Assembly: GCA_047602405.1 (NCBI GenBank)
Contig: JASGHJ010000001.1
Coordinates: 1,152,001 to 1,216,000, forward strand
From: Anaeromyxobacteraceae bacterium
GTDB taxonomy: Bacteria; Myxococcota; Myxococcia; Myxococcales; Anaeromyxobacteraceae
DNA length: 64,000 nt
Reading direction: 5' to 3'
The translations under genes were made by a program, and so were the position numbers. Shown here one piece after another: positions 3,723 to 62,773 of this stretch. How positions within the stretch are numbered: position 1 is the first letter of the stretch; each line of letters begins with the position of its first letter. Under the pieces are notes generated by a model. It saw only the letters and a list, made by a program, of their open reading frames with translations. It made no database searches and was not told the origin of the DNA.

Positions 3723-6263
3723 GTGACCGACACCCCCGAGAAGACCCCCCCGCCGAGGATGGTCGTGGACGGGCTGCCGCCGCGCCGTCCGTGGTGGAGG
3801 GCGGCCCTGCGCTGGACCCTGTTCCTCGGCCTCGGCGCCGTGAACGCGGCCGTCGTCGCGGGCGTCGTCGTCTACGTCGTCTTCTCCCGCGACCTGCCGG
3901 ACCTCCCGAAGCCCGAGGACTACCGGCCGCCGATCATCACCGAGCTCGTCTCGGCCGACGGGCAGATCGCCGGCGAGTTCTTCACCGAGCGCCGCAAGGT
4001 CGTCCCGTACGAGCGCATCCCGAAGCGGCTCGTGCAGGCCTTCGTCGCCTCCGAGGACCAGTCGTTCTTCGACCACGGCGGCATCGACCTCAAGGGCACG
4101 CTCCGCGCCGCCATCAACACCTTCGTGCTGCGCAAGCGCGTCCAGGGCGGCTCGACCATCACCCAGCAGACCGCGAAGTCGCTCCTCATCTCCAAGGAGG
4201 GCTTCGCGCAGGGCACGAAGAAGAGCCTCTCGCGCAAGCTGCGCGAGCTCATCCTCGCCCGGCGTCTCGAGCAGGAGCTCTCGAAGGAGCAGATCCTCTG
4301 GCTGTACCTGAACGGCGTCTACCTCGGGCACCACAGCTACGGGGTCCAGACCGCCTCCGAGAACTACTTCCGCAAGAACGTCGAGGACCTCACGCTCGAG
4401 GAGGCGGCGCTGCTCGCGGGCCTGCCGCAGGCGCCCTCGCGCTACTCGCCCTTCTCGCACCCGGAGACCGCGAAGGACCGCCGGCGCTACGTGCTCCGCC
4501 GCATGGCCGAGGAGGGGATGATCACGCAGGACGAGCGGCAGCGCGCCGCCGAGGCCGAGGTGAAGGTGCACGGCCTCGACGACATCTTCCGCGAGACCGC
4601 TCCGTTCTACGTCGAGACGGTCCGCCGCGACGTCGTCGCCCGCTACGGCAACGACCGCCTCCTGCGCGACGGCCTCAGGGTCGAGCTCGCCATGGACCTC
4701 GAGGGCCAGCGCGCCGCGCAGGCCGCGATGCTGAAGGGGCTCATGGAGGTCGACCACCGCCAGGGCTACCTCGGCCCGGTCGCGAAGGTCGCCGGAGACG
4801 AGAAGAAGGCCCTCGCGGCGCGCCTCGCGAAGGCGTGGCCGGAGGGCGCGGTCGGCCCCGGCGACTACGCGGTCGGCATCGTCGAGCGGGTGGACGAGAA
4901 GGCCGCCGAGGTCTCCGTCGGCGCGAACCGGGGCCTGTTGCCCATCTCCGGCATGCGGTGGGCGCGCAAGGTGAACCCCGAGCAGCGCTACCCGGACGCG
5001 CTCATCGCGCGGCCGGCGACCGCGGTGAAGGCCGGCGACGTCGTCCTCGTGCGGCGCGTCTCGCGCGAGGAGCTCGTGAAGCGCGAGACCGACGCCGGCC
5101 CGATCGGCAAGCCCAAGGAGGTCCCGGAGGCGCCCCTCCTGCTCTCGCTCGAGCAGGAGCCGAAGCTGCAGGGCGCGCTCGTGTCGGTGGACCCCTGGTC
5201 GGGCTACGTCATCGCGATGGTCGGCGGCTACGACTTCGACGCCTCCGAGTTCAACCGCGCCTTCCAGTCGTGCCGGCAGCCCGGCTCCGCGTTCAAGCCG
5301 GTGCTCTACTCGGCCGCCATCGAGAAGCTCGACTTCAACCCGGCCACCATCCTGACCGACGCGCCCATCGTCTTTCGCGACGACGAGAACAGCTGGAAGC
5401 CGCAGAACTACGGCGAGGAGTTCAAGGGCGACGTGACGCTGCGCACGGCGCTCGTCAACTCCATGAACATCCCGGCGGTGAAGACCTACGAGGCGCTCGC
5501 CGCGAAGTACGGCATGCCGGTGCTCGCCGACTGGGCGAAGACGCTCGGGCTCTCGACGCCGGTGAAGCTCGAGCTCGGCAGCGCGCTCGGCAGCTCCTGC
5601 GTGAACCTGTGGGAGCTCACGAACGTCTACGCGCTCCTCGCGCGCTACGGCGAGAAGCGCCCCTCCACCTTCGTGAAGCGCGTGCTCGACCGCGACGGCC
5701 GGCTCCTCGAGGACCACGCCGACGCGCGCGACGCCTGGGTGCCGCTCGGCGAGCGCCTGGCCGGCGCCGTGGCCGAGGTGAACCGGCCGGTGACGCGGGT
5801 GATGGAGGACAAGACCGCCTACATCCTCGTGCACCTCCTCCGCGAGGTCGCGACCGTCGGCACCGGGGCGCGCGCCGCCGCCCTCGGCAAGCCCGCCGCG
5901 GGCAAGACCGGCACCACCAACGACTCCTTCGACACCTGGTTCATGGGCTTCACCCGCGACGTCGCGACCGGCGTCTGGCTCGGGTACGACATCAACGAGA
6001 CGCCGCTCGGCCGCTACGAGACCGGCGGCCACGCCGCCCTGCCCATCTGGCTCGACTTCATGTCCGCGAAGCTGCGCGGCCGCGAGCAGCCCGAGTTCGA
6101 GGCGCCCGAGGGCATCGTGGAGGTCCGGATCGACCCGGAGACCGGCAAGCTCGCGCGGGAAGGCCAGAAGGGCGTCGAGGAGCCGTTCAAGGTGGGCACC
6201 GAACCCACCGAGGAGTCCGAGCAGGAGAAGAAGCAGGACGTGCAGGACCTGTTCATGCAGTGA
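3723..6263 (+). CDS. mrcA: Class A penicillin-binding protein 1A
   Basis: Transglycosylase motifs EDQSFFDHGG, GGSTITQQ, RKLRE; transpeptidase motifs SAFK, SMN, KTGT. Confidence 0.92.
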   Translation: MTDTPEKTPPPRMVVDGLPPRRPWWRAALRWTLFLGLGAVNAAVVAGVVVYVVFSRDLPDLPKPEDYRPPIITELVSADGQIAGEFFTERRKVVPYERIPKRLVQAFVASEDQSFFDHGGIDLKGTLRAAINTFVLRKRVQGGSTITQQTAKSLLISKEGFAQGTKKSLSRKLRELILARRLEQELSKEQILWLYLNGVYLGHHSYGVQTASENYFRKNVEDLTLEEAALLAGLPQAPSRYSPFSHPETAKDRRRYVLRRMAEEGMITQDERQRAAEAEVKVHGLDDIFRETAPFYVETVRRDVVARYGNDRLLRDGLRVELAMDLEGQRAAQAAMLKGLMEVDHRQGYLGPVAKVAGDEKKALAARLAKAWPEGAVGPGDYAVGIVERVDEKAAEVSVGANRGLLPISGMRWARKVNPEQRYPDALIARPATAVKAGDVVLVRRVSREELVKRETDAGPIGKPKEVPEAPLLLSLEQEPKLQGALVSVDPWSGYVIAMVGGYDFDASEFNRAFQSCRQPGSAFKPVLYSAAIEKLDFNPATILTDAPIVFRDDENSWKPQNYGEEFKGDVTLRTALVNSMNIPAVKTYEALAAKYGMPVLADWAKTLGLSTPVKLELGSALGSSCVNLWELTNVYALLARYGEKRPSTFVKRVLDRDGRLLEDHADARDAWVPLGERLAGAVAEVNRPVTRVMEDKTAYILVHLLREVATVGTGARAAALGKPAAGKTGTTNDSFDTWFMGFTRDVATGVWLGYDINETPLGRYETGGHAALPIWLDFMSAKLRGREQPEFEAPEGIVEVRIDPETGKLAREGQKGVEEPFKVGTEPTEESEQEKKQDVQDLFMQ

Positions 6264-49983: not shown

Positions 49984-50553
49984 GTGAACGTCGACGACCG
50001 CGTCCGCGCGCTCCTCGCCGGCGGCGACCTCGCCGGCGCCGCCACCGCGGTGATCCAGGCCTTCACGCCGGTCGCGCTGAGCTACCTCCGTCCGATGCTC
50101 CGCGACGAGGAGGACGTGAAGGACGCCCTCTCGATCTGGGCGGAGAACGCCTGGCGAGGGCTGCCGCGGTTCGAGTGGCGCTCGTCGCTCAAGACGTGGT
50201 GCGTGCGCCTCGCGTGCAACGTGGGGCTCAACTTCAAGGGCCGGGCGCACCACAAGCGGGTCCGCCGCTTCGAGCCGGGCGAGGCCTCCGCGCTCGCCGA
50301 GGACTTCCGCACCGCGAGCGCCCTGCGGGTCGAGCGCCAGCGCCGCGGGATCCTGGCGCTCCGGGAGGAGCTGACGCCCTCCGAGCAGACGCTGCTCTTC
50401 CTGCGGGCCGACCAGGAGCTCCCGTGGGAGGAGGTGGCCTCGATCCTGAGCGAGGTGGGGCCGGCCGTGACCCCCACGACGCTCGCGAAGCGCTTCGAGC
50501 GGCTGAAGGAGCGCCTCGGCCAGCTCGCGCGGGAGCGCGGGCTGATCGACTGA
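49984..50553 (+). CDS. ECF RNA polymerase sigma factor
   Basis: sigma2 region (WRGLPRFEWRSSLKTW) and sigma4 region (LPWEEVASIL). Confidence 0.85.
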   Translation: MNVDDRVRALLAGGDLAGAATAVIQAFTPVALSYLRPMLRDEEDVKDALSIWAENAWRGLPRFEWRSSLKTWCVRLACNVGLNFKGRAHHKRVRRFEPGEASALAEDFRTASALRVERQRRGILALREELTPSEQTLLFLRADQELPWEEVASILSEVGPAVTPTTLAKRFERLKERLGQLARERGLID

Positions 50554-50898: not shown

Positions 50899-53826
50899 GT
50901 GCGAACCGAGAACCCGAACGAGGAGGCCACCGCCGGGCCCGGCGCCGGCGTCGAGCCGGGCACGCTGTCGCGCCTGATCCGCGACATCGCGGCCGACGGC
51001 GACGCACGGGGCGAGGACGGTCCGGCGCCGCTCGGGGAGGGCGCGGTGGTGGGCCGGTTCCGGCTCCTGCGCGAGCTCGGGCGCGGCGGCTTCGGGGTCG
51101 TCCACGAGGCGGAGGACACGGTCCTCCCGCGCCGGGTCGCGCTGAAGCTCGTCCGGACCGGCCCGCGGTCCTCGCTCCGCAGCGAGCGGCTCCTCGAGGA
51201 GGCCGAGGCGGCCGCGCGGCTCGCGCATCCGAACATCGTCACGCTCCACGACGTCGGTCGCTCCGAGCACGGGCCGTACCTCGTGCTCGAGCTCCTCGAT
51301 GGCGAGGTGCTGCAGCGCCGGCTCTCGCGCGGCGCGCTCCCGCCCGCCGAGGCCGTGCGGATCGCCGCTGGCGTGGCGCGCGGGCTCGCGCACGCACACG
51401 CCCGCGGCGTCGTGCACCGCGACCTCAAGCCCGGCAACGTCTTCCTCACCCGCGACGGCCACGTGAAGGTGCTCGACTTCGGCCTCGCCCATGCCTTCGG
51501 CCTGAAGCGCGTCGAGGGCGGCACGCCGGCGTACATGGCCCCGGAGCAGCGGGCGGGTGGCGACGAGGACGAGCGCACCGACGTGTACGCCCTCGGCGTG
51601 CTGCTCTTCCGAATGCTGGCGGGGCGCCTCCCCTTCGCGCCCGAGGACCCCGAGGCGGCGGCCCCCGGCGCGGGCCGGGCCCCGGCGCTCGAGCTCCCGG
51701 GGCTCCCGGCGCTGGGCGAGCTCGTCGCGCTGATGCTCGAGCGGGACCCGGCCGCGCGGCCGCGGGACGGCGGCGAGGTGCTGCGCGCGCTCGAGCCCAT
51801 CCTGGCGCTGCTCACGGCCGCCGCGCCGGCGCCGGAGGCCATCGCCGTCCGGCCTGCGCCGCGCGCCCCGCCGTGGTGGAGGACCCGCCGCGCGCAGGCG
51901 CTCGGGCTCGCGCTCCTCGTGGCGATCGCCGCGGGAGGCGCCGCCGCCGCGCGCCTGCTGCGCCCGCCGCCTCCGGCCCCGCGCCCGGTGGTCGCGGTCG
52001 CCGACGTCGAGAACCTCACCGGCGATCCGGAGCTCGACGGCCTCGGCGCCCTGCTCTCGACCTCGCTCGAGCAGTCGCGGCGGCTCGAGGTGCTGACCAC
52101 CGAGCGGCTCCGCGAGCTCTCCGCGCAGGCGGGCCACCCCGCCGGCGCCCGGATCGACGAGGCCCGCGGGCTCGAGCTGTGCCGGCGCGCCGCCGCGGAC
52201 GCGCTCGTCGTCACCGCCGTGCGCCGGCTCGGCACGAGCTACACGGTGGAGGCGAAGCTCGCGGAGCCGGGCCGCGCGGCCCACCGCGCGACGTTCCGCG
52301 AGCAGGTCGCCACGAAGGAGGCGCTCCTGCCCTCGCTGGACCGGCTCGCCGAGCGGCTGCGCGAGGCGCTCGCCGGGCGTGAGCGCGGGGGCGGCGGCCC
52401 GGGCGTGGAGGCGCTCGTCACCGGGAACCTCGAGGCCTACCGGCACTACCTGCGCGGGCGCGAGGAGTACCGGAAGGTCGAGTACGCCGAGGCCGCGCGC
52501 GCGTACCAGGCCGCCCTCGCCGTCGATCCCGACTTCGCGCTCGCCCACCTCGAGCTCGCGCGGATCGGCCGGCTCGGCGAGCTTCCCCGGGACCTCGCCG
52601 CGGGCCACCTCTCCGACGCGCTCCGGCTCGCGGCCCGGCTCCCGGAGAAGGAGCGGCACCTGCTCGAGGCGTGGCGGCTCGCCGACGCGGGCGACGCGGA
52701 CGGGGCGGACCGCACGTTCGAGGCGCTCGCCGAGGACTTCCCGAACGAGGCCGACGTCGCCCTCGAGCTGGGCCAGCGGCTCGCCGCGCGGGACCAGGTG
52801 GAGGCGGCGGTTCCCCACCTGAAGCGCGCGAGCGCGCTGCGCCCCGCGGACATCATCGCGGGCTGGGAGCTCGCGAGGGCGCTCGGCTGGCTCGGGCGCG
52901 CCGACGAGGCGGTGGAGCAGGCTCGACGGCAGCACGCCGCCACCCCGAGCCCGGGTTCGGCGGTGGTCCTCGGCACGGCGCTCGAGGTCGCCGGCCGCTA
53001 CGCGGAGGCCGTGCCGCTCGGGCGCGCCGCGCTCGGCGGCGGCGAGCCGCAGGGGCGCTCGCTCGTGATGAGCGCGTCGCACGCCTCCGAGGACTTCGCG
53101 ACGGTCGAGCGCGAGGTGAGCGAGAACCTGCGCGCGCCGCTCGCCACCGATCGCGCCCGGGCGCAGGGCAACCTCGCCGCGACCCTCGTCTGGCAGGGCC
53201 GGCGCGCCGAGGCGCTGCGTGCGATCGCGAGCGCCGAGGACGGCGACTTCCCCGGCTTCATGACGCGCTTCCGGGTCATGCTCCTCGCCGGCCTCGGCGA
53301 GCCCGGGCGGCTCCGCGCCGAGGCGCAACGCCTCGCCGAGGTGGACCCCGAGAACGCCATCCTCGCGGCGCCCGCGGTGGCGTGGGCCGGCGACCCGGGC
53401 TCGGCTGCGCTCCTCGCCCGCCGGCTCCCGCCGTCGGGGGCGAACGGCAGGCTCCACGCCGCGGTGGTCGGCTGGCGCGCCGGCGACGCGCGCGCGCTCG
53501 AGGAGCTCCACCGGCTCGCGGCGACGCACGCCTCGGGTGAGCTCCTCGACGGCTTCTTCTTCGGGGAGGCTGCGCTCGAGGCCGGGCGCCCCGAGGAGGC
53601 GCGCGCGGCGCTCGAGCGGTTCCTCCGGCTGCCGGTGAAGACCGGGTGGTCGGCGTGGGCGAAGCCTCGGGCGCGGCTCCGGCTCGCGCAGGCGCTCGAG
53701 CGGCTCGGCCGGCTCGACGAGGCCCGGGCCGTCGCCGAGCGGGTCGCGGTCACCTGGCGGCGCGCGGACGCGGACTACCCGCCGGCCGCGGAGCTGAGGG
53801 CGCTGCGGGACCGGCTCGGGCGGTAG
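50899..53826 (+). CDS. Membrane Hanks-type Ser/Thr protein kinase with C-terminal TPR region
   Basis: LGRGGFG, VALK, HRDLKPGN, DFG, GTPAYMAPE; TM segment; TPR helices. Confidence 0.93.
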   Translation: MRTENPNEEATAGPGAGVEPGTLSRLIRDIAADGDARGEDGPAPLGEGAVVGRFRLLRELGRGGFGVVHEAEDTVLPRRVALKLVRTGPRSSLRSERLLEEAEAAARLAHPNIVTLHDVGRSEHGPYLVLELLDGEVLQRRLSRGALPPAEAVRIAAGVARGLAHAHARGVVHRDLKPGNVFLTRDGHVKVLDFGLAHAFGLKRVEGGTPAYMAPEQRAGGDEDERTDVYALGVLLFRMLAGRLPFAPEDPEAAAPGAGRAPALELPGLPALGELVALMLERDPAARPRDGGEVLRALEPILALLTAAAPAPEAIAVRPAPRAPPWWRTRRAQALGLALLVAIAAGGAAAARLLRPPPPAPRPVVAVADVENLTGDPELDGLGALLSTSLEQSRRLEVLTTERLRELSAQAGHPAGARIDEARGLELCRRAAADALVVTAVRRLGTSYTVEAKLAEPGRAAHRATFREQVATKEALLPSLDRLAERLREALAGRERGGGGPGVEALVTGNLEAYRHYLRGREEYRKVEYAEAARAYQAALAVDPDFALAHLELARIGRLGELPRDLAAGHLSDALRLAARLPEKERHLLEAWRLADAGDADGADRTFEALAEDFPNEADVALELGQRLAARDQVEAAVPHLKRASALRPADIIAGWELARALGWLGRADEAVEQARRQHAATPSPGSAVVLGTALEVAGRYAEAVPLGRAALGGGEPQGRSLVMSASHASEDFATVEREVSENLRAPLATDRARAQGNLAATLVWQGRRAEALRAIASAEDGDFPGFMTRFRVMLLAGLGEPGRLRAEAQRLAEVDPENAILAAPAVAWAGDPGSAALLARRLPPSGANGRLHAAVVGWRAGDARALEELHRLAATHASGELLDGFFFGEAALEAGRPEEARAALERFLRLPVKTGWSAWAKPRARLRLAQALERLGRLDEARAVAERVAVTWRRADADYPPAAELRALRDRLGR

Positions 53827-54868
53827 CGGGGGTGCCGAGGACCACCGCGTGGACGAGCCCGCGCTCCGGGCCTTCGACGCCCGCGGCGGCCTCCGCGAGC
53901 ACCGCGCTGAAGGCGCAGGTGGGGACCGCGGCGAGGCCGAGGTCGCAGGCGGCGACGAGCAGGTTCTGCGCGACGTGGCCGGCTTCGAGGAGCACCGCCC
54001 TGAGGTGCGCGGGGTGGGCGTACTTCCACGCGGTGCGCGCCCAGGTGGCCTCGAGGAACACGATCGCGGCCGCGCCGTCGACCCAGGCCTGCCCGCCGAG
54101 CAGCGCTCCGCCCGCGGCCTGCGGGCCGAGGCGCACCGGGGCGAGCGCGCGGGCGAGGCCGTCGTAGCGGTAGAGCCCGGGCGCGAGGCCGCGGACCCGG
54201 CGCACGCTCACGAGCCCCTCCACCGGCTGCCGCGCGCCGCCGGACGGCGCGAGGCGGAGCGGATGGTCGCCGAGGTCGGGGTGGTGGACCACCTCGCGTA
54301 CGCCGAGGCCGGCGAAGAGGACGTCGGCGAGCGCGGCGCGGGAGAGCGGCGCGTCCGAGAACGTGCGCACGCTCCGCCGGCGCAGGAGGTGGCGGAGCAC
54401 GCCCGAGCGCGTGCGCGGGGCGGGCAGCGGCACGGCGGCGCGCGGCCGTGCGGAGGGCAAGGTGGGTGGCGGGCGGCGCCGGGCCTTCGCGGCGGCCCAC
54501 GCGAGCGAGCCCTCGACGCTGGCCCAGGGCGCGTCGCGGCCGAGGTGCCAGAACCCGCCGGCGATCGGGCCCCAGGGCCAGGCGCCCGCGAGCGCGACGT
54601 CCTCCCGATCGCGGCGGCTGCTGCGCTCGACGAGCACGCCGGCCGAGAGCAGCCGGAGCACCGTGGCGCGGGGCGAGGGGTCGCCGGCGGCGCGGAGGCG
54701 GGCCTCCACGGTGCGCGTGCTGGTCCAGCCGTCGAGCGCGCCGACCAGCGCCGCCGCGGCGCCGAGAGGGACCGGGCGCCCGAGCGCGTAGTTCTCGCCC
54801 ACGAGTGCGCCGCCCACGGCATGCGCGAGGAACGCGTGCGCGCGCCGGAGCGGCGGTGGCCGGGTCAC
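53750..54868 (-). CDS. SagB/ThcOx-family FMN-dependent peptide dehydrogenase (nitroreductase fold) with an N-terminal extra domain
   Basis: RRRSVRTF, PSGGARQP, PGLYRY, WKY, EAGHVAQN; GTGA overlap with the upstream peptide. Confidence 0.88.
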   Translation of the reverse strand: MTRPPPLRRAHAFLAHAVGGALVGENYALGRPVPLGAAAALVGALDGWTSTRTVEARLRAAGDPSPRATVLRLLSAGVLVERSSRRDREDVALAGAWPWGPIAGGFWHLGRDAPWASVEGSLAWAAAKARRRPPPTLPSARPRAAVPLPAPRTRSGVLRHLLRRRSVRTFSDAPLSRAALADVLFAGLGVREVVHHPDLGDHPLRLAPSGGARQPVEGLVSVRRVRGLAPGLYRYDGLARALAPVRLGPQAAGGALLGGQAWVDGAAAIVFLEATWARTAWKYAHPAHLRAVLLEAGHVAQNLLVAACDLGLAAVPTCAFSAVLAEAAAGVEGPERGLVHAVVLGTPATARAGPAAPSAPRPAGSPRPRAAR

Positions 54869-55014
54869 CGGCCGCGCCGGCGGGGCTTCGCCGGGCCGGG
54901 CCGCCGTCTCGGGGCGGGCTTCTTCGCCGGCTTCGTGGCCGGGCGGCGCGCGGGCGCCTTGCGCGTGGGGCTCGCCGGCGCGGGCTCGGTGGGATTGATC
55001 GGGAAGCCGATCAT
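54865..55014 (-). CDS. 49-aa peptide MIGFPINPTEPAPASPTRKAPARRPATKPAKKPAPRRRPGPAKPRRRGR (candidate precursor)
   Basis: GAGGAG RBS; ATGA overlap with the upstream gene and GTGA overlap with the SagB-type gene. Confidence 0.7.
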   Translation of the reverse strand: MIGFPINPTEPAPASPTRKAPARRPATKPAKKPAPRRRPGPAKPRRRGR

Positions 55015-55289
55015 CGGAGCATCTCCTCGGCGGGTGCGCACTCCGCGCCCGCGAAGGTCGCCCGCCACAGTGCCTTCGCGAGCTCCATCACGGCCTCCGC
55101 CCCGCGATCGGCCGGGAGGCGCGTGGCGAGTGCGTTCGCCTCCTCGAGCGGGGCGAGGATCCGTTCGTCCACCCAGGCGCGGCGCTCCGCCTCGGCGAGC
55201 TCCTCCGCCAGCCAGCCGGCCCGCTCGCCGAAGAACGCGATCGAGGCCTCGAGCAGCGCTTCCCGGGTCGCCTTCGTCACTCCGTCCAT
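55011..55289 (-). CDS. 92-aa helical acidic hypothetical protein
   Basis: GAGGAGGGAG RBS; MDGVTKATREALLEASIAFFG... Confidence 0.65.
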   Translation of the reverse strand: MDGVTKATREALLEASIAFFGERAGWLAEELAEAERRAWVDERILAPLEEANALATRLPADRGAEAVMELAKALWRATFAGAECAPAEEMLR

Positions 55290-55509
55290 GATCACTCCCT
55301 CCTCTCCAGCAGATGTCGCACCGGGACGGACTTGACGTTCAGGGCGGCTCGCCGCTGCACGTGGAGTGAGCCAGTGGCAGGCGCAGACGTTTGCGCCGAG
55401 GCTCGCGCAGGTGGGTGGGAGGAGCCCCACGACTTCCTCCGCGGAAGTGTTTGCGAACGGGTCGCAACAGCGCGGCCGATGGTCGCGCGGCCAGGCGTAT
55501 GCTCCACCG

Positions 55510-56122
55510 GTGCGCCTCGTCCTCGCCCTCGCGCTCCTGCCCGCGCTCGCGGCGGCGCAGACGTCTGCGCAGGACGACCTCGTCCCCGCGCTCGCCGCCG
55601 AGGTCCGGGAGCTCACGCCCTGGCGCGTCGGCGCCTGGGCCCGCGGGGACGAGCGGGTCCGCGCGCTCGACCCGGTGGCCCGCGAGCGGCTCCTCGTCGC
55701 CCTCGAGGAGCCCACGCGGTGGTGGGCGCCGCCGCTCAACCTCTATCCGGGGTTCGCGCTCGGCTCGCTCGCGTCCGGCGATCCGCGCGGCCTCTGGCTC
55801 CTCGTGGCCGACGGCGCGGCCATGGCGGTCATGACCGTGGGCATGGTGATTCTCGTTCGGCGAGGGCGCGGGTCGCCCGCAGGCGGCGGTCGACCGGCAG
55901 AAGCGGGTGGGCAACGGGCTCGTCTACGGAGGCCTCGGGCTCCTCGCGGTCTCGCGCGCCGCGGGGCTCGTCCTGCCGTTCACGTTCCACGGGCGGGCGC
56001 ACCTCGAGCTCTCGCGCGCGTTCGCCGCAGCGCCGGCGGCGCCGAGCGCGGCCGCGTTCGTGCTGTCGGTGCCGTCGGCGCGCGGGACGGGCGTCGTGGG
56101 CGGGCTGGCGGTGGTGTTCTGA
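55510..56122 (+). CDS. Exported membrane protein with a P13-porin-like motif; 1-nt insertion at ~55850
   Basis: Signal peptide; LNLYPGFALGSLASGD. Correcting GATTC to GATC joins it to the 55907-56122 ORF. Confidence 0.6.
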
Positions 56123-56237: not shown

Positions 56238-59200
56238 TTACGCCCCGCCCAGCCCCCGCACGATGAAGTAGATCGCCTCCGGGTGGTGCAGCACGATCGC
56301 GGAGGTCGACTGCTCCGGCACCATCTGGTGCGCCTCGGTGAGCGACACGCCGATGGTCCGGTCCGGCTCGAGCAGCCTCCAGACCTGCGTCTGGTCCGAG
56401 AGGTCCGGCCAGCTCGGATAGCCCGGCGAGTACCGCTTGCCGCCACCCTCCGGGATGCCGAGCTCGGCGCGCACCTTCCGGTGCCAGTACTCCGCGAGCG
56501 CCTCGGCCGCCTCGACGGCGAGGCCGTGCAGGAAGAGGCCGCGGGTGTAGTCGCCCCGGGCCTGCGCCTCCTCGGCGAGGTGCGAGGCCTGGTCGCCGAC
56601 GGTGACGACCTGGAACGTCGCGACGTCGGAGCCGGGCTCCTCGCGGAACCAGTCGGCGAGGCAGAGGTTCCGGTCGTCGGGCTGGCGCGGGAGCTTCAGC
56701 CGCGCGAGCTCGGCCTTCTTGTTCGCGGGGTCGAGGACGACGAGGTCGTTCCCCTCGGCGTGCACGGGGAAGTGGCCGTACACGACCTTCGGCGTGAGCC
56801 AGCCCTTCGCCTTCGCCTCGGCCTGCAGCTCGGCGAGCTTCGGGCCGAACTCCTCGCGCACGAGCTTCTCGTACTCGGCGCCCTTCGCGCGCACGCCCCA
56901 CTGCAGCTTGTAGAGCTCGTCGAGGTCGAGCATCGGCCAGAGCTCGTCGATGGAGATCGCGCCCGAGGGCACGACGCGCTTCCCCCAGAACGGCGGCGTG
57001 GGGATGCGGGGGGCGGGGGTCACGTCGGCGCGGCGGATTGCGGGCGCGGCGGCGATCGCCGGCGCGGCCGGCGCGTCACGGTTCGCGGTGGCCTTCTGGA
57101 GCACGGCGCTCTTCACGGCGTCGCGCCGCTTCGGGTCGACGAGCTGCTCGACCACCTCGAGCCCCTCGAACGCGTCCTTCGCGTAGAAGACGCCGCCGGC
57201 GTACGGCGTGCCGCCGTCGACGAAGTGTGCCTTGTAGCCGAAGCGCCGGTTGATGGCCGCGCCGCCGATGATGACCGGGAAGGCCAGGTTCCGCCGGTGC
57301 AGCTCCTCCACGCAGAAGGGCATCTGCTTCGAGGTCGAGACGAGGAGCGCCGAGAGCCCGATCGCGTCGGCCCCGGTCTCGACCGCCTTCTCGATGATGG
57401 TCGCGACGGGGACCTGCTTGCCGAGGTCGTGCACGGTGAACCCGTTGTTGACGAGGATCGTCTTCACGAGGTTCTTCCCGATGTCGTGCACGTCGCCGTA
57501 GACGGTGGCGAGCACCACCGTGCCCTTCGTGGTGCCCTCCTTCTTCTCGAGGAACTGCTCGAGGTGGGCGACCGCCTTCTTCATCACCTCGGCGGACTGC
57601 AGCACGAACGGCAGGATCAGCTCGCCCGCGCCGAACTTGTCGCCGACGTCCTTCATCGCCGGGAGCAGCACCTCGTTCAGCACCGCGACCGCCGAGCGGC
57701 GCTCGAGCGCGTCGTCGATGAGCGCCTGGATGCCCTCGGGCTTGCGGTGGAGGATCTGCAGGTGGATCCGCTCCTCGGCGGTCTTCCCGGCGAAGACGTC
57801 CTCCTGCACGACCTGCTTCTCGGCGCCCTTCGCGCCGAAGTGCTCGATGAGCCGCGCGAGCGCGTCGGGGCGGCGGTCGAAGACGAGGTCCTCGGCGAGC
57901 GCGCGCTCCTCGGCGGGGATCTGCGGGATGGCGCGGATGTCCTTGGGGTTCACGATGGCGAGGTCGAGCCCCGCCTGCACCGCGTGGAACAGGAACACCG
58001 AGTTCACGACCTCGCGCGCCTGCTTCGCGAGGCCGAAGGAGACGTTCGAGACGCCGAGCGTGGTGAACACGCCGGGGTTCTCGGCCTTGATCCGCCGGAT
58101 GCCCTCCAGCGTCTCGACGGCGCTCTTGCGGTACTCGTCGGAGCCGGTCGCGAGCGTGAAGGTGAGGCAGTCGAACACGAGCGCGTCCGCGGGGACGCCG
58201 TACTCCTTCGCGACCGCCACGAGGCGGCGCGCGATCTCGGCCTTGCGGTCCGCGGTCTGCGCCATGCCCTTCTCGTCGATGGTCATCGCGACCACCGCGG
58301 CGCCCCAGCGCCTCACGAGCGGCAGGACCTTCTTGACCCGCTCGCCGGACTTCTCGAGGTTGATCGAGTTGACGATGCAGCGGCCCGGGTAGGTCTTGAG
58401 CGCCGCCTCGATCACGTCCGCCTCGGTCGAGTCGACCATCAGCGGGGCGTCCACGCTCTGGGCGAGCAGCTTCACGAGGGTGCGCATCTGCGCGGTCTCG
58501 TCGTCCCGCTCGTTGAGCGCCACGCACACGTCGAGCACGTGCGCGCCGGCGTCCACCTGCCCGCGGGCGATCTCGACGAGCCCCGCGTAGTCGTCGGCGA
58601 GGAGCAGCTCCTTCACCTTCCTCGAGCCCTGCGAGTTGACGCGCTCGCCGACCACGAGCGGCCGGGGCTGCAGATCGAGCGGCACGGCCTTCATGGCCGA
58701 GCTGAGCTCGGGCAGCGCGCGCGGCCGGGCGCGCTTCTTCGTCTCCACCGGCCGGATCTTCTCGACCACCGCCCGGAGGTGCGCCGGCGTCGTGCCGCAG
58801 CAGCCGCCCACGAGGTCGACGCCGCTCTCGACCACGAAGTCGCGGAGCGCGATCGCGAGGTCGTCGGGGGAGAGCTTGTAGACGGCCTTCCCGTCCACGT
58901 TCTCGGGCATGCCGGCGTTCGGCAGCACCGAGATGTAGTGGCTGCACTTCTCGGAGAGCGTGCGGATCGAGGCCCGCATCTCGGCGGGGCCGGTCGAGCA
59001 GTTGAGCCCCACGCAGTCGACCGGCAGCCGCTCGAGCGTCGCGAGCGCGCTCGCGATGTCGGTGCCGAGCAGCATGCGGCCGTTCGCGTCGATGAGCGTC
59101 GGCTGCGCGATGAGGAAGACGTCGCGCATGAGCTCCTTGCGCACGGCGTCGACCGCGAGCACCGCGGCGCGGAGCTCCAGCATGTCCTGCTGGGTCTCGA

Positions 59201-59679
59201 CGATGATCGCGTCGACGCCGCCCTCGACGAGGCCGCGGGCCTGCTCGAAGAAGATCCGCTCGAGCGCGTCGGAGGTGATGTTGCCGAGCGCCGGGTCGCT
59301 CGACGACGGCAGCATGCCGGTCGGGCCGATGGAGCCGGCGACGAAGCGCGGGCGGTCCGGCGTCGAGAACCGCTCCGCGGCCCGGCGGGCGAGGATGGCC
59401 GCCTTGAAGTTCACCTCGTAGGTGCGGTGGCCGACGCCGTACTCGTCGAGCTTGAGGCGCGAGGAGCCGAAGGTGTTGGTCTCGACGACGTCGCAGCCGA
59501 CCGCGTAGTAGCGGGCGTGGATGTCCTCGATGAGGTCGGGGCGGGTCAGCGTGAGGAGGTCGTTCGCGCCCTCCTTGCCGCCGAACTCGGCCGCGGTGAG
59601 CTGGTGGCCCTGGATTCTGGGTGCCCATGGCGCCGTCGAAGACGAGGACGCGGCGCTCGATGGCTTCTCGGAAGGTCAC
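56238..59679 (-). CDS. metH: Cobalamin-dependent methionine synthase; 1-nt insertion at ~59615
   Basis: DGAMGTQ(I)Q, ETNTFG, GLNC, GGCCGTTP, GDVHDIGKN, RYSPGYP. Confidence 0.95.
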
Positions 59680-60458: not shown

Positions 60459-60640
60459 CCGGGCATCGTAACCGGGCATGCCGGCACGCCGGCGCCACCC
60501 CGCGATCGGGTGCGACGATTGGCCCGGGCTCCGCGGCTTTGACGCGGCGGAGCCCACGGGTCACGCTCCCCGTGAACGGCTCGCGCGCGGGGGTGCGCGG
60601 CCGGTCCGCCGTACTCGGAGCTCGCAGCAGGGGAGACCAC

Positions 60641-62773
60641 ATGACCGCCTCGTCCACGCGCCTCACCGTGCGCACGGCACTCGCCGTGCTCGCGCTCGCC
60701 TCGGGTTCGCTCGCATGCGGCAGCCGCGCTCCGGAGAAGGCCGCCGCCGCCACGACCCGCACGCAGGCGAGCGCCGCGGTCGCGACCGCGTGCGGCGGCG
60801 CCCAGACCTGCACGCCGACCGACGCGCACGCGCGTCACCAGGCGAACGGCCTCGACTGCGTCTCCTGCCACCCGTGCGGCGGTCAGTTCGGCTTCAAGGT
60901 GGGCTACACGTTCCCGGGCGGCACGACGATCCTCCCGACCGACCACTACACGCCGGCCTCCGGCGGAACGCCGGCCTCCTGCACCGTCGCCTGCCACGCG
61001 CCGATGGGCTCCCCGTCCGCGCCGGTGACCTGGAACGCGGCCTCGCCGCTCGCGTGCGTCGGCTGCCACGACGTCTCGGCGATGCTCCAGCGCTTCCCGA
61101 ACCACCCCGCCGTCTCCCCCACCGCCTCGCGCGCCGACTGCGAGGTGTGCCACAGCATGGACGCGCACACGACCGGCACGGTGAAGCTGCAGGGCCACCC
61201 CGCCGCGTGGATGGACCGCGCGAGCGCCGGCTTCCACGCGCCCGTGGCGAACCGTGGCCTCACGGCCTGCAAGGCCTGCCACCGCGCCGACCTCTCGGGC
61301 GGCCTCACGAACGTCGCCTGCACGGGCTGTCACCGCGCGAACGGCACCGCGAACGACTTCGCGAAGTGCACGGCGTGCCACGGCGGCACCCAGAACGCGA
61401 CCGGTGCGCCGCCCGCGGCGATCTGGGGCTTCGCGGGTGACCCGAACCGCGGCGGCGGGACCGCCGACCCGATCCGCGTGGGCGCGCACACCGCGCACGT
61501 CACCGCCGGCGCGTACGGCCCGGCCTTTGGCTGCGAGACCTGCCACGTCACCCCGCCGAGCATCGTCGCGCCCGGCCACATCGACGACACCGCTGGCGCC
61601 CCGCTCGCCTCGGTCACCTTCGGTGGCGTCGCCGTGAACGGCGGCCCGACGCCGGGCTGGACCCGCGGCACCGCGACCTGCTCGAACACCTACTGCCACG
61701 GCGCCTCGCTGCCCGGCGGCGGGCTCACGAACCCGGTCTGGACCGCCGGCGCGGGCCAGGTCTACTGCGGCAGCTGCCACGGCGTGCCGCCGCCGACCCC
61801 GCACGTCCCCGTCGACACGACGAACGGCTTCGGCGTCTGCAGCCCGTGCCACACCGACACCGTGGACGCCGCGGGCCACATCATCGCGGCGAGCGCGGGC
61901 GGCAAGCACCTCGACGGCTTCCTCGAGGCCTCCGGCCACGACGCGAACTGGATGGACCGCGCGAGCCCCGGCTTCCACGCCTTCGCGGCGAACCGCGGCC
62001 TCGACAACTGCAAGCCGTGCCACGGCGACCAGCTCGAGGGCGGCTCGGTCCGCACCGCCTGCACGCAGTGCCACAAGCCCGGCGGCCCGGGCAACGACTT
62101 CGCCACCTGCACGGCCTGCCACGGCGGCACGCTCGACGCGACCGGCGCGCCGCCCGCGGCCATCTGGGGCTACGCCGGTGATCCGCTCCGCGGCGGCGGC
62201 ACCGCCGACCCGCTCCGCGTCGGCGCGCACCGCAAGCACGTCGCGCAGACCACCGGCAAGGCGATCGACTGCGCCGCGTGCCACGTGAAGCCGGCGACCT
62301 GGACGGATCCGACCCACGTCGACGACGCCACGCCGCGCGCCACCGTCACGTTCGCCGGGGCGGTCGGCACCGTGCCCGCGGGCGCGACGCCGACCTGGAA
62401 CCGCGACGCGGGCAGCTGCGCGGCCACGTACTGCCACGGCAACTACTCGGGCGAGTTCCACTACACGACCTGGGACTGGGGCACCGACAGCGCGGTCGAC
62501 AACGTCTTCACGTACGTCGGCAAGCAGGCCACGCCGGGCTGGGCCGACGGCGGGCTCACCTGCGCCTCCTGCCACGGCAACCCCCCGTCGGGCGGCACCT
62601 GGCACACCCCGTACCACGGCAACAACGTGGCCTACACGAAGTGCCAGGTCTGCCACCCCGACGCGTCGACGTCGGCCACGGGCGCGAACGTCATCACGAA
62701 CGCCGCGCTGCACATCGACGGCAAGGTGGACGTGCAGCCGGTGTGGGTGAACCGCTGCTTCGGCTGCCACTGA
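60641..62773 (+). CDS. Multiheme c-type cytochrome lipoprotein (CxxCH/CxxxxCH family), 19 predicted hemes
   Basis: SLAC lipobox; 16 CxxCH, 1 Cx3CH and 2 Cx4CH counted. Confidence 0.92.
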   Translation: MTASSTRLTVRTALAVLALASGSLACGSRAPEKAAAATTRTQASAAVATACGGAQTCTPTDAHARHQANGLDCVSCHPCGGQFGFKVGYTFPGGTTILPTDHYTPASGGTPASCTVACHAPMGSPSAPVTWNAASPLACVGCHDVSAMLQRFPNHPAVSPTASRADCEVCHSMDAHTTGTVKLQGHPAAWMDRASAGFHAPVANRGLTACKACHRADLSGGLTNVACTGCHRANGTANDFAKCTACHGGTQNATGAPPAAIWGFAGDPNRGGGTADPIRVGAHTAHVTAGAYGPAFGCETCHVTPPSIVAPGHIDDTAGAPLASVTFGGVAVNGGPTPGWTRGTATCSNTYCHGASLPGGGLTNPVWTAGAGQVYCGSCHGVPPPTPHVPVDTTNGFGVCSPCHTDTVDAAGHIIAASAGGKHLDGFLEASGHDANWMDRASPGFHAFAANRGLDNCKPCHGDQLEGGSVRTACTQCHKPGGPGNDFATCTACHGGTLDATGAPPAAIWGYAGDPLRGGGTADPLRVGAHRKHVAQTTGKAIDCAACHVKPATWTDPTHVDDATPRATVTFAGAVGTVPAGATPTWNRDAGSCAATYCHGNYSGEFHYTTWDWGTDSAVDNVFTYVGKQATPGWADGGLTCASCHGNPPSGGTWHTPYHGNNVAYTKCQVCHPDASTSATGANVITNAALHIDGKVDVQPVWVNRCFGCH

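Follow-up and report, generated by a model that had tools for sequence, protein, structure and literature searches.

A candidate kinase-linked, YcaO-free peptide-oxidase cassette in an Anaeromyxobacteraceae genome and the probable origin of its split precursor gene

Described nitroreductase systems and the Anaeromyxobacteraceae locus

The closest described counterpart of the locus reported here is the TIGR04509/04510/04511 cassette, listed in NCBIfam as a peptide related to nitrile hydratase-like leader peptides (NHLP), a cyclase-TPR protein, and a peptide maturation dehydrogenase. The locus lies in a 64,000-nucleotide stretch of DNA from an Anaeromyxobacteraceae bacterium (the window), whose genome (G000) comprises 6.16 Mb in 2 contigs; a genome of the same genus (G026) was used for comparison. 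Relatives likewise assign the window to this family. It holds a precursor gene read in two pieces, a flavin mononucleotide (FMN) oxidase gene, and a convergent kinase-TPR gene. As in the listed cassette, a precursor, a YcaO-free dehydrogenase, and a large TPR protein are encoded side by side, and the oxidase belongs to the same clade. The differences concern all three components. TIGR04511 was the best family match of the oxidase, with 127.3 bits against a cut-off of 240, and the true member L055 scored 472.9. P0028, the precursor of G026, and the other precursors of the family had no NCBIfam match, whereas the precursor of the control locus L204 scored 94.7. A Ser/Thr kinase stands in place of the cyclase domain, and the match to TIGR04510 was partial (136 bits, cut-off 400; residues 321-706, profile 203-589 of 814). 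On the best reading, the locus is a kinase-linked variant of this cassette that misses all three family cut-offs. The kinase-TPR gene and the likeness to the cassette were both missing from a preliminary description of this DNA. The reading as a whole, namely one precursor (split by a likely error), a YcaO-free oxidase of an aromatic residue, and a membrane kinase sensing the product, was given about an even chance of being right.

Neither a description of the cassette nor a paper naming TIGR04511 was found in the open-access literature searched. A TIGR04511 search of 401 Gammaproteobacteria genomes gave 3 true members; in the 6 loci inspected from this search, no fusion to a multinuclear non-heme iron-dependent oxidase (MNIO) was recognised.

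Other nitroreductase-fold enzymes share part of this arrangement. PflD of the Pseudomonas pfl cluster (PMC12636437) has a nitroreductase fold, a ribosomal precursor, and no YcaO, and gives Z-dehydroPhe with a loss of 2 Da. As described there, PflD is fused to an MNIO and its partners are an HEXXH enzyme, a GNAT protein, transporters, and an NHLP precursor, none of which is in the window cassette. The window oxidase (372 aa) carries PF00881 only; its neighbours are the kinase-TPR protein and a small membrane protein, with no MNIO or HEXXH partner. SagB/McbC/ThcOx and BmdC share with it the fold, the FMN-binding Arg motif, the active-site Tyr, and an RRE-like domain (RRE, recognition element of RiPPs, peptides that are made ribosomally and modified post-translationally) before the oxidase domain. 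These enzymes oxidise azolines made by YcaO or by a cyclisation domain of a nonribosomal peptide synthetase (PMC8795117), and neither is in the window cassette. Clusters of thiazole/oxazole-modified microcins (TOMMs) and linear azole-containing peptides of the SagBCD type likewise have an FMN oxidase with a Lys-Tyr pair. The locus differs from them in having no YcaO in the cluster and a precursor whose C-terminal part is not rich in Cys, Ser, or Thr. The cassette is not a TOMM.

AlbA/AlbB and the TyzC-type N-acyl-tyrosine desaturases (PMC12479983) resemble the window enzyme in nitroreductase-fold α,β-desaturation. They act on small molecules and lack an RRE, whereas the window oxidase has a predicted one. 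No AlbB-like subunit or cyclodipeptide synthase was found beside the window oxidase, the neighbouring open reading frames (ORFs) being of other kinds. AlbA-type cyclodipeptide oxidases act on Leu.

The precursor gene and its single-base break

Three minus-strand ORFs of 92 aa (55011-55289), 49 aa (54865-55014), and 372 aa (53750-54868) are present, the last encoding the oxidase. They are joined by 4-nt overlaps, ATGA and GTGA, where the preliminary description had placed them; its Shine-Dalgarno (SD)-like stretches upstream of the first two ORFs and its count of four Ser/Thr (1 Ser, 3 Thr) and zero Cys in the 49-aa ORF were also found. Its division into three genes did not hold, since the first two ORFs form one 141-aa ORF in G026. 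Besides itself, the 92-aa ORF retrieved a single homolog when used as a query, the 141-aa P0028 (65% identity), which runs on directly into PMIGFPLDD and a basic tail; 92 and 49 add up to 141. The P0028 gene belongs to G026, whose synteny with the window extends over ~40 kb at 81-93% identity. The alignment of the two precursor genes covered 486 columns and contained a single internal 1-nt gap, at ~55018 (55015-55020, minus strand). At all 6 other loci of the family, a single ORF of 85-141 aa lies directly upstream of the oxidase. We therefore regard the 92-aa and 49-aa ORFs, with high confidence, as one precursor as the working unit.

The product of the merged gene (54865-55289, minus), 141 aa long in G026, is helical in its N-terminal part, carries the motif P-M-I-G-F-P internally, and has a basic Pro/Lys/Arg/Ala tail. 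The 92-aa ORF corresponds to the N-terminal, presumably leader-like part, and the 49-aa ORF to the C-terminal part, in which the candidate target Phe is encoded at 55003-55005 (Phe96 in P0028). The two halves had a GC content at third codon positions (GC3) of 0.91 and 0.96, and the GTGA overlap of the precursor with the oxidase is also kept in G026. Since G026 has one ORF and the window lacks one base, MIGFP is internal rather than an N-terminal head. The free peptide beginning with MIGFPINP that had been proposed is thus not borne out. Its expected conserved start M-x-G-x-P-I-x-P was found at 1 of 68 related loci, that of G026, and there it stands within the protein, at residue 93; an N-terminal M-x-G-x-P motif was accordingly rejected. 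The idea of the basic tail as a conserved follower also failed, the basic stretch being N-terminal in two relatives of the family.

Further searches returned little. The 92-aa ORF had a weak likeness (26%, E 0.003) to the 136-aa ORF preceding a second oxidase in G026, and a profile search seeded by three precursor sequences gave no match beyond those three. The exact 49-aa sequence was absent from the protein collection searched, and a Pfam scan of the 92-aa ORF gave no match. The 92-aa ORF was also considered as an AlbB subunit and rejected, as it is the front of the 141-aa precursor and had no Pfam match. A promoter and terminator scan found nothing. Four relatives (L163-L166) have the word CACGCTGGGTCAA in common, located downstream of a TTGACG hexamer and ~40-80 nt upstream of the precursor; it may be a conserved promoter or operator and was not seen in the window.

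Sequence comparison suggested a good probability that the split is an assembly error. Between G000 and G026, 73 lone 1-nt gaps were found in 389,601 aligned bases: 20 were frame-breaking in G000 only, 1 in G026 only, and 52 lay outside clear coding context. A looser phase test gave 25 for G000 against 7 for G026, with 10 shifted in both. The 20 G000 breaks were clustered, 9 lying within 3 nt of a G026 GATC (background 5.6%) and all 20 at GATC- or GAAGA-like words (background 11%), the patterns having been picked after viewing the sites. This clustering resembles motif-linked long-read error. A single-base insertion at the precursor break would create GATC. A further break lies 4.6 kb away in metH (56238-59679, minus), which has one extra base at 59615, near the gene start; the G026 ortholog is a whole frame of 1147 aa.

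Two other accounts of the break were weighed. It could be real and functional: a helical protein of 92 aa would provide the leader-like part in trans, and translational coupling would yield a separate peptide of 49 aa. An SD-like GAGGAG does sit 8 nt upstream of the second ATG, this start also has the ATGA overlap, and the backgrounds of SD-like words before internal Met codons in G026 (3.3% for a 5-mer, 8.7% for a 4-mer) make this second ribosome-binding site somewhat unusual. The kind of error also speaks against an assembly artefact: 18 of the 20 G000 frame breaks are extra bases and only 2 are missing bases, as here, and the precursor break as it reads has no GATC- or GAAGA-like word within 8 nt. 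However, the SD-like word is not kept in G026, and the overlap counts for less because Met-Ile codons produce ATGA without any gene boundary, which is the case for 22% of the 1,185 internal Met codons counted in G026. With one ORF in G026 and at 5 other loci of the family, and frame breaks of 20 against 1 between the assemblies, a functional split was considered improbable. The missing base could instead be a real recent mutation, the cassette being dead or decaying in this strain and its chemistry relevant only in relatives. The cassette has a patchy distribution, with 6 of 92 family genomes carrying it, the kinase gene of the second G026 copy is in pieces, and two family-conserved residues, His at 107 and Tyr at 289, have been lost from the window enzyme as well as from its ortholog in G026. 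Against decay, the oxidase and kinase frames are open with catalytic motifs intact, and the measured assembly error load suffices to explain one break; decay was judged unlikely, slightly less so than a functional split. An assembly error thus remained the preferred explanation.

The breaks at GATC and GAAGA/TCTTC words at the 20 G000 sites hint at two methylated motifs in the organism. Lone 1-nt indels relative to G026 were also seen at 55852, 36285, and 26056, the one at 55852 splitting a small membrane-protein gene (about 55505-56122, plus).

The oxidase and its likely substrate

The oxidase matched PF00881 (E 3e-17), with the nitroreductase domain at residues 162-343, and TIGR03605 with 75 bits, below the cut-off of 78.4. 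The FMN-binding Arg motif and Lys-Tyr pair named earlier are present as R164-R-S-V-R168 and K282-Y283. Among 153 family members, R164 was conserved in 153, R168 in 152, K282 in 137, and Y283 in 151. A single-sequence fold had a predicted local distance difference test score (pLDDT) of 40.8 and was not used; a structure model from 22 homologs reached 78.5. Its N-terminus showed strands at 7-9, 13-18, and 21-26, followed by helices at 38-44, 51-60, and 66-75, with pLDDT 81-97. Residues ~1-95 are accordingly predicted by the model to form an RRE-like winged domain. The suggestion that the N-terminal extension is a peptide-recognition element agrees with this model, whose extension can be aligned with the RRE-like parts of both BmdC and ThcOx. 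Structural matches over both domains were obtained for BmdC (Z 20.4, model 3-349) and ThcOx (Z 20.3, 1-353). AlbA was a weaker match (Z 15.4, 149 residues; Foldseek rank 37). In BmdC, the N-terminal domain is described as RRE-like and the Tyr as the likely base (PMC8795117).

At E ≤1e-30, 941 representatives of the oxidase family were counted, some of them perhaps of other SagB types. A quick tree was made from 155 catalytic-domain rows, after removal of seven duplicate rows and of partial rows; it groups the window enzyme and a true TIGR04511 member in one clade of 67 rows, with a Shimodaira-Hasegawa-like approximate likelihood ratio test (SH-aLRT) value of 99. A plasmid search gave 22 records with catalytic-domain matches only, none covering 80%. 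In the literature, PMC8939145 mentions enzymes like SagB in a different setting, close to ATP-grasp loci, and the passages considered of PMC12710340 name the Pfam in a list only.

The oxidase likely acts on its precursor without YcaO. The genome search placed the only YcaO of the genome on the other contig, in line with the absence noted earlier. A YcaO gene adjoined 1 of 68 full-length homolog loci and 42 of 95 short SagB loci; at loci with 3 kb on both sides, the counts were 1/30 and 18/39. The YcaO profile was built from matches at short SagB loci and is biased toward detection there. Searches gave no YcaO in four of the five family genomes that carry the cassette, which are 95-98% complete and in 30-670 contigs, and none in four of the five distant carriers. 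The earlier proposal of a YcaO-independent system therefore stands, YcaO being rare at clade loci and not found in most carrier genomes.

Precursors across the clade were unrelated in sequence. Tandem-repeat precursors were carried by 15 of the 60 loci with upstream DNA; the repeat units contained F, Y, W, or H in 15/15 and Cys in 0/15. Three also had no Ser or Thr, which rules out azole chemistry for those three. The repeat frames of L083, L084, L198, and L016 were set by an SD-bearing ORF or by higher GC3. In short alphaproteobacterial precursors (GLCYNK, GLIYNK, GLLYNK, GRNYNK, and GICHNK), the place of Cys can be taken by Ile, Leu, or Asn, and the Tyr or His that follows is retained. The only aromatic residue of the C-terminal part is, in the window as in G026, the Phe of IGFP, and the second G026 precursor has LVYPF at the position aligned with IGFP. 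PflD offers a precedent, as its nitroreductase domain forms Z-dehydroPhe within an Ile-Phe context and does so without YcaO; YcaO-free RiPP nitroreductases are described as rare, uncharacterised, and possibly makers of other dehydroamino acids (PMC12636437, 2025). Nitroreductases have also been linked to dehydrotyrosine lipids (PMC12479983). An aromatic residue of the precursor was therefore considered the target of the oxidase with a probability somewhat above even. By analogy, the chemistry is probably α,β-dehydrogenation, here with the Phe of IGFP as target. This part of the preliminary description, which had named α,β-dehydrogenation, holds as the likely chemistry on the PflD precedent and the repeat precursors; oxidation of an N-terminal head does not, the motif being internal.

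Tandem-repeat precursors before clade oxidases were seen at L008, L009, L014, L016, L018, L090, L092, L094, L100, L104, and L198, with His-, Tyr-, or Phe-containing units in up to 19 copies and in several phyla. Examples of repeat sequences in the clade are AYPHMA (L009), MGHTFQP (L018), APWHQ (L024), and PHAPVA (L104). At L022, L025, and L027 (Alphaproteobacteria), a regulator-like gene (by eye), not a kinase, precedes a tiny G-L-x-Y/H-N-K precursor and the oxidase.

Several observations count against an aromatic target. The repeat units represent ~8 independent lineages with a chance of 0.5-0.9 per unit, so the statistical weight of the aromatic signal is modest. IGFP is known from only two sequences, a Cys-rich motif replaces it in 5 of 7 family precursors, and an aromatic residue near the end is lacking in some precursors of the clade (L086). 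The YcaO-free oxidase could thus have a non-aromatic target, either a Cys-containing motif or an aliphatic residue (Ile/Leu/Val): five family precursors have C-x(5-7)-P-W/F/Y-C-like motifs, Bacteroidota precursors end in NIVAC or NVIAC, one without a nearby aromatic residue, and the TIGR04509 cores seen here read TVVFC. The 0/15 count of Cys in repeat units and the swapping of Cys next to a retained Tyr or His in the alphaproteobacterial precursors oppose this alternative, which was judged unlikely. An ordinary azoline oxidase working in trans with the single YcaO of the genome on Ser, Thr, or Cys was considered highly improbable. It would fit the retained Lys-Tyr pair, the oxidase being the only TIGR03605-like match in a genome with one YcaO, and the sole clade locus with YcaO directly upstream of the oxidase (L108, ~4100-4670). 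However, TIGR03266, a thioamidation model, gave the highest score for the YcaO of this genome, a TfuA gene lies ~10 kb from that YcaO gene, no YcaO match was obtained in 4 of 5 relatives carrying the cassette, and three repeat units lack Ser, Thr, and Cys altogether. The YcaO and TfuA genes (L201, G000:C2:3380112-3392631) are not adjacent.

For the favoured aromatic target, the following course may be proposed. The RRE of the oxidase would bind the precursor at its helical N-terminal part, the conserved Tyr283 would serve as base, and FMN would accept the hydride. The product would be an α,β-dehydro residue (-2 Da), most likely dehydro-Phe at I-G-F-P. The modified peptide might then be cut, exported, and read by the kinase, the weakest step of the proposal.

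The kinase-TPR gene and the meaning of the cassette

The convergent gene at 50899-53826 (plus) encodes a 975-aa protein with a Pkinase domain (residues 55-250) and TPRs according to Pfam, and a hydrophobic stretch near 332-354, a predicted membrane helix. Its 3' end overlaps the 3' end of the oxidase gene by 77 nt. The convergent arrangement was found at 6 of 7 family loci; at the seventh, the kinase gene lies ~1.8 kb away in pieces. The kinase-TPR gene is a member of the cassette. In a search of 92 genomes with the kinase sensor region, the five best non-self matches were the five oxidase-adjacent kinases (42-85% identity, next 38%). Shared descent of one block would also yield this pattern. 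A specific tie is further weakened by similar kinase-TPR genes in 62 of 92 family genomes and by the presence of a kinase near only 11 of 30 well-flanked clade loci. By eye, no evident signal peptide was seen in the precursor, and the cassette has no protease or transporter that would open a route to an outside sensor. That the kinase senses the modified product is plausible, at a little under even chances.

The second G026 cassette (L177, G026:C12, 3331-9811) comprises the 136-aa precursor and an oxidase, a short-chain dehydrogenase/reductase (SDR) gene, and the kinase-TPR gene in pieces. Just upstream of the kinase in the window lies an extracytoplasmic function (ECF) sigma factor gene (49984-50553, plus), kept in G026 C3; in four other relatives, uvrB rather than an ECF sigma gene precedes the kinase. 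A 744-aa multiheme cytochrome-like protein with many CxxCH motifs (60539-62773, plus) is also kept in G026.

This kind of cassette is already listed in NCBIfam, as the putative peptide modification system TIGR04509/04510/04511, and the peptide of the three-gene reading probably arose as an artefact of assembly. Caution is warranted with small-ORF "operons" in this genome, as they can arise from 1-nt assembly errors, which occurred about once per 20 kb compared. In its broadest and doubtful form, the proposal is that stand-alone RRE-nitroreductases of one widespread clade introduce dehydro-Phe, -Tyr, -Trp, and -His into unrelated precursors, often of tandem-repeat type, and that in Anaeromyxobacteraceae a dedicated membrane Ser/Thr kinase has the dehydro-peptide as its ligand. 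If true, this would be a peptide signalling system marked by a single C=C bond, and dehydro-His or dehydro-Trp made by such enzymes would be new RiPP chemistry. For tests, the clade supplies simple two-gene systems whose cores hold Phe, Tyr, Trp, or His, together with a candidate receptor.

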